The notes under the pieces: generated by a model
What the model saw: the letters and a program-made list of their open reading frames with translations, nothing else
What the model was told of the DNA's origin: nothing
The model's database searches: none
Translations under genes and position numbers: made by a program
From: Cupriavidus necator
GTDB taxonomy: Bacteria; Pseudomonadota; Gammaproteobacteria; Burkholderiales; Burkholderiaceae
Direction: 5' to 3'
Assembly (NCBI RefSeq): GCF_016127575.1
Contig: NZ_CP066019.1
Coordinates: forward strand, 2,250,001 to 2,282,000
Length of the DNA stretch: 32,000 bases
Shown: piece by piece, positions 20,580 to 32,000 of the stretch
Position numbering within the stretch: the stretch's first letter is position 1
Layout of the letters: every line of letters begins with the position of its first letter

Positions 20580-23500
20580 TCAGGCATGCCTTAAATCGGC
20601 CGTGTAGTTGGCACCCTGCGTGCCGCCTTGCGACTCCAGCCCGTCTGCCAGCAGTTCCAGTTCGGCATGGAAGGCCTGCCAGTCCGGACCGATGGCAACC
20701 AGCCCCGAGCGCCGGACCGCCTGCTCCAGCCAGCGGCACGCCTGGCTCTGCAGCGCATGGCCCATTACCGACAGCGCCCCGGCCAAGCCGTGCAAACGTT
20801 GGGCAAACGCTTCGGCGTCGCCCGCCAGCAGCGCCTCGGCCAGTGCGCGCTGGTCCCGCCGCAGCGCGTCGGCATGCAGCAGTGTGTCGCCGCCTGCATG
20901 CGCGCCCGGCGCTGCCCGCGTCGCCATATGGGTGCCGGACAGATCTTCCAGCAGCTTGCGCAGCGTGCCCAGCCCCACCGGCTTGGTCAGGCATCGGTCG
21001 ATGCCGGCCTGCTGGCATCGCTCGGAGACATCGGGCCCCACGCTGGCGGTGACGGCAACGATCGGCGTGGCGAGGCCGGCATCGCGCAGGCACCGCGCCA
21101 GCGTGAAGCCATCCATGCCAGGCATCTGCAGATCGGTCAGGACCAGGTCGTAATGCCGGCCCGATGCCATCAACAGGGCCTCGGGCCCGTCACCGGCCAG
21201 ATCGACCTTCTGCCCCAGGTTTTCAAGCTGTTCCCGCATCACCACCTGGTTGATCGGATGGTCTTCCACCAGCAGCAGCGCCAGCTGCACGGCAGGCGTA
21301 TCGTCGCGCGCCGGCACGGGCGCCTGCGTTGCCGTCACCTCCACGCCTGCCGCTGCCGCGATCGCCGCCAGCAAGCCGCGCCAGGCATAGGGCGATGCCA
21401 CCACCGGGGTCTGCGTCAGGTCCGGCACTGCCGGCGCCATGGCCGACACCACCACATCGGCGTCGTTGCAGCGAGGCATGGCCTGCTCATCGCACACCAG
21501 GACATCGACCGGCGTGGCCGGCGGCGCGGCGGGGTCATACTTGACCGCCCGTGCGCCATAGAACTGCAGCAACTGCTCCACGCCCTGGTAGAGCTCGCGC
21601 AAGGTGACATTGAGGCCGACCGTCAGTCCCCGCAACGCGGTCCGCGGCCAGGCATCGGCCGGCGCCTCGGCGCCAGCGCTGGCCAGCGGCAGGCTGACGG
21701 TAAAGCAACTGCCCAGGCCGGGCTCGCTGACCAGCCGTATCTCGCCAGACATCAGCCCGACCAGCCGGCGGCAAATCGACAGCCCGAGGCCTGTGCCGCC
21801 GTAGTGGCGCGTGTCCGGCTGCTCGGCCTGGACGAAGGGCTCGAACAGCCGGCGCTGGTCTCGCGCGGCGATGCCGATGCCGGTGTCGATGACGCGGATT
21901 TCCACGCCGCCGCCCGGCTTGCGCATGGCCGTGACGATCACCTTGCCTTGCTCGGTAAATTTCACCGCATTGCTGACCAGGTTGTTCAGGATCTGTTCGA
22001 GCTTGACCACGTCAGCCATCACCGGCTCAACCAGCGAAGGATCATTGACGCACAGCAGGCGCAGCTGCTTGCGCGCCGCTTCCGCGGCAAAGCGCCGGGT
22101 CACGTCCTCGACGATCTCCTCGACGCGGCAGGGCCGCAACTGCAATGACATTTGCCCTGCCTCGATCTTGCTGAAGTCGAGCACGTCATTGATGATGTAG
22201 ATCAGCGACTGCGACGCGTGCTGCATGACCGCCAGCTGGTCGCGCTGGCGCGAATCGAGCCGGGTCAGGCCAAGTAACTCGATGCTTCCCAGCATACCGT
22301 TGAGCGGTGTGCGGATTTCATGGCTCATGGTGGCCAGGAACGAGGACTTGGCGTGGTTGGCGGCATCCGCGGCGCGGATCGCCTCGCGCAGGCGCGCCTC
22401 GCTGCGGCGCGCGTCGGTCACGTCGTTCAGCGCGCGGAGCACGGCCGCCCGCCCTTCATAGGTAATCTCCACCTGGCGCACTTCCAGGTACCGGGTCTGG
22501 CCGTTGCGGCCGACCAGATCGACATCGAAGCAGGGCTGCACCCGCGGCATGCCTTCGGTTGTGGTGCCCTCGCTCGTCAGCCGCGCGTCACAGGCATCCT
22601 GCAACTGCGCCAGGCCGGCGGGCGTGGCCTGGTCGGTGATCGAGTGGGCCGCGGCATTTGCCAGCAGCACCTGCCGGGTGCTGCGCTCGACGATCATCAG
22701 GCCCACGCCGGCCACTTCGATCACGAAGCGCCCGAGCGCATCGCTTTCCTGCAGGCGCAAGGACTGACGCTGCGCAGGGCGCATGATGCGGCGGTCGATC
22801 AGCCAGATCCACGCCAGGATCAGCATCGACAGCGAGCCGGTCAGCCCCAGCATCCATAAGGCGTTCTGCCGGAACTGGTGCCATACCTGGCCCAGTGCGA
22901 TCACGCCGACCGTGCGCCAGCCCCACGCGTCAAACTGGTATTCCAGCACGACGACATAGTCCAGAAGCCCTTGCCGTACCAGCGCCGAACTCACCCTACC
23001 CGGGCGCGTACCGGGCGCGGCCAGCGATGCCGTGACCGACTGGCCGAGGGTGCCGGCCGGCATGCCATCCGCACTCAGTGCCATGCCGGCATCGGTCACC
23101 AGCACGAAATCGCCGTCAATGGTCTGTCCGTCCGGCAGCATCGGCGACAGCGGGAACTCCATGGCCAGCACCGCGGCCGGTTCGCCACCGACTTGCACCA
23201 GCGTGGCGAAAGTGACGGTGCGCATGCCGCTGACCCAGTCCAGCGCCGGCGGCAGCACCACCGCCTGGCCCGGATGGGCGCGCAGGCGTGCGACCAGCGC
23301 GTCATTGCGCAGGCGCGCGAGCGTGTCACGCAGGAAGGTCTGGCGCACGTCATCGCGCTGCATGAGCGCGCGTGCCGGGTCCAGCCGGCGCGGGATGACA
23401 TAGAGCTGGTCGGCCTGCAGGTCGACCAGGTAGGCGTTCTGCACGTCGCGGTACTGCAGGTTGTTCACGCGGAAGGTGAATGTCATCACGTCGGCCAGGC

Positions 23501-29910: not shown

Positions 29911-32000
29911 TTAGCGGCAAACCGCTTCCACGGTCTGATACGAGGCATTCGCGTCTTTTTCAAGCTTCGGCAGGACATAGTCCAGCTTGCATGCTTCCGC
30001 AACGGCCCTACCCCACTTCACGCTCAGCTGGCCTGCATCCGTCTTCAGCCCGCGCGCAATGATGCGCCCGCCCTGAGCGACAGTGCCGACGCTCTGGCCT
30101 TGTGCATCGAAGACCTCCGCCCCGAACGGCAGCGGCTTGCCATCCGGTCTGTTGGCCCGCAGAAGCGCCGCACGGCCAGGGTTGTCGGTCTCGAACTTCA
30201 TCTTCACAATCGCGCCTGCGGTCGGCGCCACGTTCTGCTGCGTCGTCTTCAGCTCAACGCTCATGGGCAGCCCCTTCGGGTCGATCTCGATCTGGTTGGT
30301 GGCGAATGGCGTCAGGGTCGGCACCACGGCGTGGCCCCAGGGGTCCACGCGCAGGCCGCTGCCGTTGGCCAGGCGCGCACCCGCGGCATCCTTGGCCTCG
30401 ATGATGGCCATGGTGTCGCCCACCGTGGGCGTGAAGGCCACGCCCCCCGCATAGGCCACGATGCCGCCGCTGATGCCCAGGCCTGCTTGCGAGAAGTCGC
30501 GGCCCTTGCTGGCACTGGCCGTCATGGTCGCCATCGGCGACACATAGCCGACGTTGGCGCCGACAGTGGCTGCATCCCTGGTGTCGCCGCCACCGGTGTA
30601 GCCGGCGTTCACGCCGTAGGTGAAGGCGCTGTCCTGGCCCAGGGTGCCGGTCACTGTTTCCTGCAGCGACGTGCCCCCGGTGGAATCGTGGCTCAGGCTG
30701 GTCATCGAGTACGGCGCGTGCTGACCCTTGCCCAGCGGGATACCCACGTTGAGCATCACCCGGGTGTCCCACTTGCCTGAGCCGACGTTGAACTGGCGCG
30801 ACGCCGAGACGCCATAGTTGATGCGCTTGTAGCTGTTGTTATAGCCCGCCTGGAACTGGGTATCGGAACCGCCGCGGTTCCAGTAGTTCTGCGTGGAGCC
30901 GGACAGGTAGAACGAGCCATAGCCTTGCGGCAGCATCTGGTTGATGGTCACCTGCAGGCGCCCGCGCTGGATGCCGCCGAGGAACGTGCCAGGGCCCAGG
31001 CCGCGCTGGTCCAGGTCGCGCAGCGCCATGGCATCGGTCATGCTCAGGTAGCCGCTGCTGGAATAGCGGTAGGCGGCCAGCGTCAGGTTGGTGTTGGTCG
31101 GTGCCACCAGCTTGCTGTACGACAGCCGCATGCTCTGGCCGCTCCGGTTGGGTGCATTCTGCAGGTTGGTCCAGGCCTGGGTCACGTCGGCGCCAAAGGC
31201 GCCGAAGTCCGTGTTCAGCGCCCCGCCGCCCATCACCGCCGTGTAGTCCTGTGCCGCGATGACGCCGCCGTAGCCGGTCAGCATATTGCTGATGCCGTGC
31301 TGAACGGTTGCCTGCATCAGCATCGGCCTGCTCTGGATCGACGTATTGCGGTACTGGCCGACGGTCACGCTGTAGCGCGTGACGCCCGGGCGCAGCGCAT
31401 TGACGGCTGCGGCGTAGGGCACGCGCGAGGTATGGACGCTGCCATCGGCTTCCGTGACCACCACCTCGAGATCGCCGCCGTAGCCGGTCGGATACAGGTC
31501 ATTGATCTCGAATGCGCCGGGGGCAACCGTGGTTTCGTAGATGGTGTTGCCGCCCTGGCGGACCTGCACGCGGGCGTTGCTGTTGGCAATGCCATGGACC
31601 ACCGGCGCATAGCCGCGCTGGGATTCCGGGTACATCCGGTCGTCGCTGGCAATCTGCACGCCACGGAAGCCGAAACTGTCGAACAGGGTGCCGTCGGTGA
31701 AGGCATCGCCGATGATCAGCTGGCTCCTGATCGGCGCAATCGAGCGCTGCAGGTTGGTCTGCACGCTCTGGTAGCGCGTGCCCTCGACGTCGCCGTGCGT
31801 CAGGTTGCCCAGATGGCGAAAGCGCCAGCCACCGAAGTTGAGTCCGGCGTTCACCCCGACGTAGCTCTGCGTGGTCGATATCCCGCTGGAGTCGGAGTGA
31901 TAGACGTTGGCGTTGTACTGCAGGCGCGCCGCGGTCACGCCTTCGTCCCAGTACTTGGGATCGACATAGCCGCGCGCCGAGCGCGACATGGCGATCTGCG
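29911..32000 (-). CDS. Fimbrial outer-membrane usher (PapC/FimD family), N-terminal ~150 aa outside the window
   Basis: The frame is open to the window edge (QIA precedes the listed ATG at 31989). ARGYVDPKYWDEGVTAARLQYNANVY parallels FimD RGYIPPELWD. The body is long and rich in beta strands with many Tyr/Gly. The C-terminal domain has a Cys pair (AEACKLDYVLP...VEAVCR). Stop at 29911-29913. Confidence 0.9.
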   Translation of the reverse strand, partial: QIAMSRSARGYVDPKYWDEGVTAARLQYNANVYHSDSSGISTTQSYVGVNAGLNFGGWRFRHLGNLTHGDVEGTRYQSVQTNLQRSIAPIRSQLIIGDAFTDGTLFDSFGFRGVQIASDDRMYPESQRGYAPVVHGIANSNARVQVRQGGNTIYETTVAPGAFEINDLYPTGYGGDLEVVVTEADGSVHTSRVPYAAAVNALRPGVTRYSVTVGQYRNTSIQSRPMLMQATVQHGISNMLTGYGGVIAAQDYTAVMGGGALNTDFGAFGADVTQAWTNLQNAPNRSGQSMRLSYSKLVAPTNTNLTLAAYRYSSSGYLSMTDAMALRDLDQRGLGPGTFLGGIQRGRLQVTINQMLPQGYGSFYLSGSTQNYWNRGGSDTQFQAGYNNSYKRINYGVSASRQFNVGSGKWDTRVMLNVGIPLGKGQHAPYSMTSLSHDSTGGTSLQETVTGTLGQDSAFTYGVNAGYTGGGDTRDAATVGANVGYVSPMATMTASASKGRDFSQAGLGISGGIVAYAGGVAFTPTVGDTMAIIEAKDAAGARLANGSGLRVDPWGHAVVPTLTPFATNQIEIDPKGLPMSVELKTTQQNVAPTAGAIVKMKFETDNPGRAALLRANRPDGKPLPFGAEVFDAQGQSVGTVAQGGRIIARGLKTDAGQLSVKWGRAVAEACKLDYVLPKLEKDANASYQTVEAVCR

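Follow-up and report, generated by a model that had tools for sequence, protein, structure and literature searches.

Beside a chaperone–usher fimbrial operon of Cupriavidus necator lie genes for two sensor kinases, each apparently equipped for a whole phosphorelay, and for two DNA-binding regulators, one of which has lost its phosphorylation site. Do these genes form one circuit for the fimbriae, and what could a regulator of the second kind contribute to it? The analysis covered 32,000 nucleotides (RefSeq assembly GCF_016127575.1, contig NZ_CP066019.1, positions 2,250,001 to 2,282,000, forward strand), referred to here as the window; coordinates are those of the window unless a locus record is named. 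The two kinases are designated K1 and K2, the canonical regulator RR, the pseudo-receiver regulator psRR and a further orphan regulator RR3. The psRR protein occurs with identical sequence on H16 chromosome 2 (AM260480.1, ~2.34–2.36 Mb) and in several other C. necator assemblies. On balance we lean towards a Cupriavidus-specific, fimbria-dedicated Rcs-like network, in which two sensors would feed RR and psRR would act as an auxiliary partner of the RcsA/BglJ type. A literature search found no publication specific to this Cupriavidus locus. The coordinates and the minus-strand order in a preliminary description of the sequence (usher, subunit, K2, RR, psRR, K1, strong terminator) were borne out by the list of open reading frames (ORFs) and their translations. 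The features are as follows.

29911–32000, continuing past the window end, minus strand: 3′ part of the usher gene (PF00577 Usher, 561 bits, with PapC_C and PapC_N).
29206–29841, minus strand: doubly frameshifted fimbrial-subunit gene (169-aa ORF at 29332–29841; PF00419 on the three-frame join).
29148–29171, minus strand: terminator-like hairpin after the fimbrial operon (8-bp stem with 6 GC pairs, T-rich tail).
29077–29089, minus strand: −10-like block TGATGCATAATCC of the putative K2 promoter, ~100 nt upstream of K2.
25655–28984, minus strand: K2, predicted unorthodox hybrid sensor kinase of 1109 aa (Pfam, NCBIfam, orthologue alignment).
25644–25657, minus strand: RcsB-box-like perfect palindrome TAAGGAATTCCTTA of the putative RR promoter, overlapping the K2 stop codon.
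24879–25520, minus strand: RR, NarL/FixJ-family regulator of the RcsB type, 213 aa (Response_reg and GerE).
24836–24857, minus strand: weak terminator-like hairpin after RR, in a region not conserved in sequence between species.
24708–24721, minus strand: related box TCAGGCTTGGCTGA of the putative psRR–K1 promoter, within a conserved block upstream of psRR.
23988–24641, minus strand: psRR, predicted pseudo-receiver regulator of the LuxR/FixJ type, 217 aa (GerE only in Pfam).
20580–23900, minus strand: K1, predicted unorthodox hybrid sensor kinase of 1106 aa (Pfam, AlphaFold2, Foldseek).
20459–20479, minus strand: intrinsic terminator closing the cluster (8-bp stem with 6 GC pairs, 5-nt loop, then T8).
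16255–16920, plus strand: RR3, orphan canonical RcsB-like regulator (receiver and GerE in Pfam and NCBIfam).
Locus record L001, 450–463, outside the window: pilin-operon box TAAGGCTTGCCTGA.

The strongest tie between these genes and the fimbriae is their gene order. A genome scan was performed with RR as the query, and related loci were mapped with tblastn. The order pilin–chaperone–usher–K2–RR–psRR–K1 was found in all eight of the other Cupriavidus species that carry the module, namely Cupriavidus sp. UYPR2.512, Cupriavidus sp. TMH.W2, C. necator SHC 2-3, C. neocaledonicus, C. nantongensis, C. phytorum, C. alkaliphilus and one metagenome-assembled genome (MAG). Conservation of a kinase–regulator–pseudo-regulator–kinase order next to usher genes was the comparison that the preliminary description had proposed, and the linkage is invariant wherever the module exists. 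The association with pilus genes that it had suspected is both physical and evolutionary, resting on this synteny and on an RcsB-box-like site at the pilin and RR promoters. The operon itself starts outside the window (L001), where a FimA-type major pilin (FimA, 76.7 bits) and a PapD chaperone (PapD_N, 158 bits; PapD_C, 66 bits) precede the usher; with usher, PapD chaperone and FimA subunit all present, it encodes classical chaperone–usher fimbriae. At greater distance, homologues of RR with 45–48% identity in Paraburkholderia and Caballeronia have no other query genes nearby, and Andreprevotia and Silvimonas carry kinase–regulator–regulator modules in which both regulators are canonical.

K1 and K2 are built alike. 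Each has a transmembrane (TM) helix, a periplasmic domain (~303 aa in K1, ~305 aa in K2), a second TM helix, a PAS-like linker, HisKA (H527 in K1, H518 in K2), HATPase, a receiver domain (REC; D923 and D917) and HPt (H1037 and H1040). In Pfam, the two kinases score 70.8 and 72.8 bits for HisKA, 102 and 107 bits for HATPase_c and 85 and 99 bits for Response_reg; Hpt lies under its gathering threshold in both (17.5 and 22.1 versus 24.6 bits). The relay residues are nevertheless invariant in all full-length orthologues collected, as are the H-box SHEIRTP, which places a Thr at H+4 in K1 and K2, and the HPt His motifs, HGLAG around H1037 and HRMRG around H1040. The receiver motif LTD(L/I/V)(Q/H)MPGMDG with its acceptor Asp is kept, and the Hpt threshold is passed by five of nine more distant relatives that have a K2-type sensor. 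Because of this invariance and of these relatives, K1 and K2 are both predicted to be complete unorthodox (tripartite) His–Asp–His kinases, so that the full HisKA–HATPase–REC–HPt set first read from the sequence stands, though the Pfam Hpt matches are sub-threshold. The BvgS/BvgA-like label attached to these proteins at that stage does not: the best NCBIfam models are RcsC for the kinases and RcsB for the regulators. The RcsC model scores 409 and 418 bits (cut-off 920) and aligns in one stretch from the second TM helix to the end of the receiver; the EvgS model reaches 224–228 bits against a cut-off of 1995.

By BLASTP, K1 and K2 are 37% identical over K1 residues 327–1059, which run from just before the second TM helix into HPt. 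Their duplication would be old, because in their cytoplasmic parts both are closer to kinases of other families than to each other: K2 to one from Andreprevotia (42% identity) and K1 to one from Silvimonas (43%). In one C. necator assembly, GCA_051903405.1 (L004, 5886–8986), K2 carries a 228-bp deletion of coding-sequence nucleotides 2890–3117 (residues ~964–1039; window equivalent ~25868–26095) that ends just before the HPt His, and the gene is called as pieces of 965 and 64 aa.

The periplasmic regions present a different picture, as BLASTP found no similarity between K1 and K2 across these ~300 aa. Substrate-binding (SBP) or Venus-flytrap (VFT) domains were not detected by Pfam in either kinase; in particular there is no SBP_bac_3 match, in agreement with the first impression that the sensors are unlike the periplasmic VFT domains of BvgS. 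Residues 44–346 of K1 were modelled in AlphaFold2 from an 11-sequence alignment (pLDDT 77.7, pTM 0.79). The model consists of a helix (2–46) followed by two β-rich modules. In a Foldseek search of the PDB, almost all of the top matches listed were dCache ligand-binding domains at a probability of 1.00, with E values of 1e-8 to 1e-6 and TM-scores of 0.4–0.5 among those listed; they include domains of PctC, Tlp3, Mlp24, PctA and HK1S-Z. By this model the K1 sensor is a dCache fold. With the K1 fold so assigned and no SBP hits, BvgS-like VFT sensors were rejected as a candidate.

For K2, the AlphaFold2 model from a 3-sequence alignment reached a pLDDT of 37.8. Pfam dCache_1 appears as a sub-threshold match in eight of nine K2 orthologues (best E 1.2e-4, 21 versus 45 bits). 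An exhaustive HMMER search of 1.84 billion proteins returned only 13 representative clusters with this type of sensor, and the nine full-length relatives scanned all have the same kinase architecture. Searched against the PDB, the profile of this family matched dCache chains, namely 7psg (E 1e-4), KinD, PctC and PctA (E 1e-4 to 0.17), and compared with the K1 sensor profile it gave a probability of 88% (E 2.8e-6, 181 columns). The link was seen only with the diverse K2-type family: hhalign of the shallow K1 and K2 sensor alignments found no relation (0.3% probability), the shallow K2 alignment, searched as a profile against the PDB, yielded nothing beyond a chance-level ROK match, and a word-indexed protein search with K2 residues 1–400 returned only two partial orthologues. 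The K2 sensor is probably dCache-like, and on profile comparison the two sensors would be remote homologues that share one fold despite wide divergence. The initial statement that they share little is accordingly correct at the level of BLASTP and not at that of profiles, and the hint of a Cache-like fold in both was well placed, for K1 by model and Foldseek and for K2 at the profile level.

Of the two regulators, RR is conventional. It matches Response_reg (72.6 bits) and GerE (46.6 bits) in Pfam, and its best NCBIfam model is RcsB (155.6 bits, under the cut-off of 235); the FimZ model reaches 75 bits against a cut-off of 271. In an alignment with Escherichia coli RcsB, its DD pair, D54 (VTDYSMPG), Thr and Lys align with those of RcsB, and RR has the features of a NarL/FixJ response regulator. 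It is 94–99% identical across eight species, with a ratio of nonsynonymous to synonymous substitution (dN/dS) of 0.03–0.06; all dN/dS values are pairwise, H16 versus seven species.

In psRR, the Pfam scan found an intact GerE domain (44.4 bits) and no Response_reg match. The alignment shows Asp54 replaced by Arg, DD by DS and the conserved Thr by Ala, substitutions common to H16 and 12 aligned Cupriavidus orthologues (DS is DP in two). Its orthologues are found in Cupriavidus only, at 74–89% identity, all with LR[YF]P at the acceptor site; the next-best matches are canonical regulators at no more than 34% identity. On these residues psRR is classed as a pseudo-receiver regulator and not as a response regulator. 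The dN/dS of psRR is 0.26–0.51 overall. Since it is lower in the helix–turn–helix (HTH) part (0.11–0.31) than in the receiver-like part (0.33–0.57), psRR is read as a maintained protein with the DNA-binding domain as its more constrained part. A decaying pseudogene was ruled out by the ORF, intact in nine species, together with the overall ratio. The W[FLM][TS]R motif is that of VpsT/CsgD-like regulators that bind cyclic di-GMP. It is absent from psRR, and this candidate was also rejected; the only Trp in the corresponding helix of psRR is W, R, C or G among orthologues.

RcsB is still the best NCBIfam model for psRR, as a weak full-length match (57.9 versus 235 bits). The BglJ model matches the HTH only (E 5e-7, 29 versus 176 bits) and the RcsA model reaches 18 bits against 162, so that psRR would be an analogue, not an orthologue, of RcsA/BglJ. 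A recognition-helix core, K-T-I-S-x-Q-K, is common to RR, psRR, RR3 and RcsB. That an extra, non-phosphorylatable regulator is present had been recognized correctly, as the acceptor Asp is lost in all orthologues; to call it unusual was an overstatement given the precedent of BglJ, in which the receiver-like domain appears to lack the phospho-Asp (PMC3950696). The third regulator noted near the kinases, RR3, does have the receiver and GerE features of a canonical response regulator. It is RcsB-like, and of the eight other species a single one (L007) has it close to the cluster; as a conserved third arm of the module it was rejected.

What may connect the regulators to the fimbriae at the DNA level is a set of operator-like boxes. 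In intergenic alignments of the nine species, a 14-bp inverted repeat is seen at three promoter-like regions, those of the pilin operon, RR and psRR–K1. This conserved RcsB-box-like palindrome (TAAGG-N4-CCTTA type), which abuts the −35 positions, is new here. The pilin-operon box is kept in eight of nine species and has a symmetric CCTTA form, TAAGGCTTGCCTTA, in the ninth (L007); the RR box follows the pattern TAAGGAAT(T/A)CCTTA exactly in seven species and with one mismatch in two; the psRR box is identical in all nine. With one mismatch allowed, the RR-box pattern has two sites in the window (0.08 expected from window shuffles), and a degenerate pattern covering both box types has three distinct sites (five strand matches; 0.14 expected). 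The strict pattern occurs three times in the 20.6-kb locus, compared with 0.03 in shuffles. Both in its 5-4-5 layout and in the TAAGG half-site, the repeat is similar to the RcsB box of Salmonella, TN(G/A)GAN4TC(T/C)NA (PMC7913699).

In H16 the three boxes share one geometry, with 6 nt directly after the box, then a spacer of 17 nt and finally a −10-like hexamer. The predicted pilin promoter has TTGGTG at the −35 position and TATAGT as its −10-like hexamer; that of RR has ATTCAG, 17 nt and TAATAT (25620–25615), and that of psRR–K1 has TTTCGA, 17 nt and CATCCT (24684–24679). For these predicted promoters the box centre falls near −42. The half-sites differ: the pilin box combines TAAGG with TCAGG, the RR box is symmetric for TAAGG and the psRR box combines TCAGG with TCAGC. 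Enterobacterial RcsB works with FixJ-type partners, and the boxes of the RcsA and BglJ heteromers resemble the RcsB box in one half only (PMC3950696); by analogy, the half-site pattern suggests composite boxes of this type. Upstream of K2, the usher–K2 intergenic alignment of the nine species contains no RcsB-like box. Its sole strongly conserved block is TGATGCATAATCC, which is unique in the window. The 87-nt gap between psRR and K1 is free of terminators, and co-transcription of the two is therefore probable.

A near-palindrome over the last K1 codons and stop, TAAGGCATGCCTGA (20580–20593), is conserved in L008 only and was set aside as chance. No Rfam match was obtained for the window, and its inverted repeats include nothing notable besides the boxes and terminators. 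A Silvimonas MAG (L020, 760–788) contains two adjacent RcsB-box-like palindromes, TCAGGTTTGCCTGA and TAAGAAATCTCTTA, ~90 nt upstream of a K1-like kinase with a sensor 31% identical to that of K1.

The gene between usher and K2, first described as a pilin, does encode a fimbrial subunit, but it is doubly frameshifted, its true extent is 29206–29841 and the major pilin lies outside the window. Beyond the stop of the 169-aa ORF, coding resumes in two other frames (...PLGTTKVLSDYS, then ASTGGSYVIPLKARYYQTGSTVAAGAANSGMTFTMTYQ), and the three-frame join ends in ...MTFTMTYQ, a typical fimbrial-subunit C-terminus. The joined protein matches PF00419 with 51 bits over model positions 28–151 of 151, compared with 19.6 bits for the 169-aa ORF alone. 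The gene is confined to the H16 lineage and absent from all eight other species, and the gap from usher to K2 is 932 nt in H16 versus 192–296 nt in the others. We read it as a decaying, lineage-specific extra subunit gene. At the other end of the operon, a HAMP–HisKA–HATPase sensor kinase (482 aa, faint AbfS_sensor match; L001, 1–201) ends just upstream of the fimbrial promoter and is part of another two-component system.

In the network that we favour, K2 and K1 would each detect a ligand in the periplasm by means of a divergent dCache domain and run their own His–Asp–His relay, and together they would set the phosphorylation state of RR. Phosphorylated RR would bind TAAGG-N4-CCT(T/G)A repeats just upstream of −35, as at class-II-like sites, and activate the pilin–chaperone–usher operon, its own gene (autoregulation) and the psRR–K1 operon, the last through the variant box TCAGG-N4-GCTGA. 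K2 would be expressed from its own conserved, box-free promoter. The part of psRR would be that of a phosphorylation-independent partner of RR, placed on the non-TAAGG half-site of composite boxes such as that of the pilin promoter. Who phosphorylates whom, the occupancy of the boxes, the direction of regulation, the heterodimerization of RR with psRR, the convergence of K1 and K2 on RR and any gating are all steps that we infer. A more specific code, in which RR homodimers would occupy TAAGG/TAAGG, RR–psRR heterodimers the TAAGG/TCAGG pilin box and psRR TCAGG/TCAGC, is speculative and in our estimate improbable. If it were true, two dCache signals would be integrated through the phosphorylation of RR and the amount of psRR; K1 would be under the control of its own circuit, giving a feed-forward and feedback switch for piliation; and Rcs-type logic would have arisen independently outside the Enterobacteriaceae, dedicated to a single operon.

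Several observations weigh against the network as set out. Homologues of RR with 69–71% identity in Cupriavidus sp. H19C3, C. plantarum and C. pampae follow directly after fliM–fliN–fliP–fliR (L015, L016 and L017, ~5900–10650), and neither kinase nor chaperone–usher genes were found within 10 kb of them in these three species. By gene neighbourhood, RcsB-like regulators of the RR clade are also linked to flagella, and a regulator of this type is not intrinsically fimbrial. The K2 deletion in one C. necator strain and the frameshifted subunit gene of H16 mean that parts of the system tolerate decay. The origin of psRR and its partner are not evident from the sequence, because it is about equidistant (28–37% identity) from all canonical regulators compared. 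As judged from sequence, the proposed −35 elements are poor and the −10 element of psRR (CATCCT) is weak. The symmetric pilin box of one species (L007) weakens the heterodimer reading of the half-sites, and the fold of the K2 sensor is assigned from profile evidence alone.

Comparison with described systems places the module more closely; for Pseudomonas aeruginosa PA14 and for Cbl it relies on features given in PMC3842833 and PMC4866733. The precedent named in the preliminary description, CblS/CblT/CblR, is real (PMC4866733); a closer one, PvrS/RcsC/RcsB/PvrR–cupD of PA14, was missed (PMC3842833). In PA14, PvrS, RcsC and RcsB control cupD, the activation of which requires an RcsB site in the cupD1 promoter (PMC3842833). 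The Pvr/Rcs–cupD locus (PMC3842833, PMC2696094) resembles ours in having two receiver-bearing membrane kinases and an RcsB-type regulator beside a chaperone–usher cluster, an RcsB-type site in the fimbrial promoter and a second, unconventional regulator in the module. It differs in that PvrS is a hybrid without HPt that signals through the unorthodox RcsC, whereas both Cupriavidus sensors are complete, and in that the second regulator, PvrR, is a REC–EAL phosphodiesterase that antagonizes RcsB output (PMC3842833), whereas that of Cupriavidus is a DNA-binding pseudo-receiver; the gene order also differs.

CblS/CblT/CblR is a multicomponent phosphorelay that controls the cable pili of Burkholderia cenocepacia (Tomich and Mohr 2004, as cited in PMC4866733 and PMC3842833). 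In those accounts, genes for two sensor kinases and one response regulator accompany a pilus operon, as here and likewise in the Burkholderiaceae. As described there, the hybrid CblS needs the HPt of the unorthodox CblT, whereas each Cupriavidus kinase has its own, and the same accounts describe no pseudo-receiver regulator for Cbl. Circuits for pilus control are thus already known in Pseudomonas and Burkholderia, and the module is a variant of them specific to the Cupriavidus lineage.

With the enterobacterial Rcs system (RcsC/RcsD/RcsB with RcsA, BglJ, MatA and GadE; PMC3950696, PMC7913699, PMC5829831) the module shares RcsC and RcsB as best NCBIfam models, the 5-4-5 box architecture and the use of a FixJ-type partner lacking the phospho-Asp, which in the case of BglJ is an established diversifier of RcsB targets. 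There, the HPt is on a separate RcsD, whereas in Cupriavidus each kinase carries a fused HPt and is predicted to sense through a dCache domain; Rcs is a global envelope-stress system, and the Cupriavidus module would be dedicated to one fimbrial operon. Genes resembling RcsD, RcsF or IgaA were found neither in the window nor within the 10-kb flanks of related loci. As the equivalog cut-offs are missed, RcsD, RcsF and IgaA are lacking at these loci and the sensors are predicted dCache domains, the module does not belong to the enterobacterial Rcs system. BvgAS, EvgAS and RocS1–RocA1 likewise pair unorthodox kinases with NarL-family regulators, and Bvg and Roc control fimbrial genes; their sensors are periplasmic Venus flytraps (SBP_bac_3), unlike the predicted dCache sensors of K1 and K2. 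In Salmonella, the type 1 fimbrial cluster ends with fimZ, fimY and fimW, and the RcsB/BvgA-like FimZ acts on the pilin promoter with a LuxR-type co-regulator. A regulator and a LuxR-type co-regulator directly downstream of chaperone–usher genes recall the present arrangement, but the Salmonella cluster is without dedicated kinases.

These comparisons supply the alternatives to the network. In PA14 the labour is split: PvrS is a kinase, and RcsC a relay and phosphatase, with phosphatase activity dependent on a Thr at H+4 (PMC3842833). A similar division in Cupriavidus, as in PA14 and Cbl, would make one sensor the net kinase and the other mainly a phosphatase or relay, and the circuit antagonistic instead of additive. 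The Thr at H+4 of SHEIRTP in both K1 and K2 and the divergence of their cytoplasmic parts to 37% identity would fit such a division. In contrast to the hybrid-plus-unorthodox pairs of Cbl and Pvr/Rcs, however, all catalytic and relay residues are kept in both kinases, and a net bias towards kinase or phosphatase is not predictable from sequence alone. We regard the division of labour as unlikely.

The sign of psRR could also be reversed. As an antagonist it would compete with RR at the boxes, draw RR into inactive heterodimers or offer the HPt domains a decoy that accepts no phosphoryl group; since its own expression would be induced by RR through the psRR–K1 promoter, the result would be delayed negative feedback limiting piliation. 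The recognition-helix core that psRR shares with RR (KTIS.QK) and the related box on its own promoter are compatible with such competition, the second regulator of PA14, PvrR, offers a precedent for antagonism of RcsB output (PMC3842833), and the contrast in dN/dS between receiver-like part and HTH fits DNA binding as the main constrained activity. Set against this, RcsA and BglJ work as co-activators with enterobacterial RcsB (PMC3950696), the asymmetric pilin box (TAAGG and TCAGG) suits a composite activator site at least equally well, and the sequence data do not distinguish the sign of regulation; an antagonistic psRR seems to us rather improbable.

Two juxtaposed systems, with K2–RR serving the fimbriae and psRR–K1 signalling elsewhere (for example to RR3 or to a flagellar-linked RcsB-like paralogue), seem to us quite doubtful. 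The separate promoter-like elements for K2, RR and psRR–K1, the terminator-like hairpins after the fimbrial operon and RR, the own HPt of each kinase, by which neither needs the other, and the placing of the Silvimonas K1-like kinase, with an RR homologue to one side of it and a second, canonical regulator like RR3 to the other, would all allow such an arrangement. Yet the four genes stand together in the same order by the chaperone–usher operon in all nine species, the conserved module has a single phosphorylatable regulator, RR3 adjoins it in just one of the other eight species and the psRR–K1 box matches those of the pilin and RR promoters in family and geometry.

The remainder of the window contains genes of other kinds. 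Beyond the 3′ end of K1 lie a convergent 373-aa ORF, an MFS/MarR pair and then RR3. The ORF (19225–20346, plus strand) has no Pfam match and lies in a low-GC stretch (0.587 versus ~0.67). A lone IS3-type transposase orfA (HTH_Tnp_1; 13773–14159, minus strand), with no recognizable orfB after it, lies beside a further low-GC stretch (14001–15000) and is probably an insertion-sequence remnant at a boundary of acquired DNA. At 8914–11022, an esterase of the polyhydroxybutyrate (PHB)-depolymerase type (Esterase_PHB, 189 bits) is divergent from a Crp/Fnr-family regulator, a pair that may be of interest as the host is a PHB producer. A 1329-aa DUF748 protein with weak YhdP and OmpA similarity (1099 bits; 3260–7249, minus strand) is probably an AsmA-like envelope protein, and adjoining genes at 11053–13287 (minus strand) encode DUF2950 and DUF3300 proteins.

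Control of chaperone–usher pili by several kinases is known from a few pathogens (Pvr/Rcs–cupD in PA14, Cbl in B. cenocepacia and Roc in P. aeruginosa), and the present locus is a compact, conserved example in an organism that is genetically tractable and not a pathogen. Since every part has a known counterpart, it adds to a theme already established and starts no new one. With both sensors predicted to be complete relays, the locus allows parallel input to be set beside the relay-through-partner mode of the known systems, and the conserved pseudo-receiver second regulator means that the pairing of an RcsB-type regulator with an auxiliary partner may not be confined to enterobacteria. The three conserved boxes are direct targets for mutagenesis and footprinting. 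As H16 is an industrial strain, switching of the fimbriae could matter in reactors, for adhesion, flocculation and biofilm formation.

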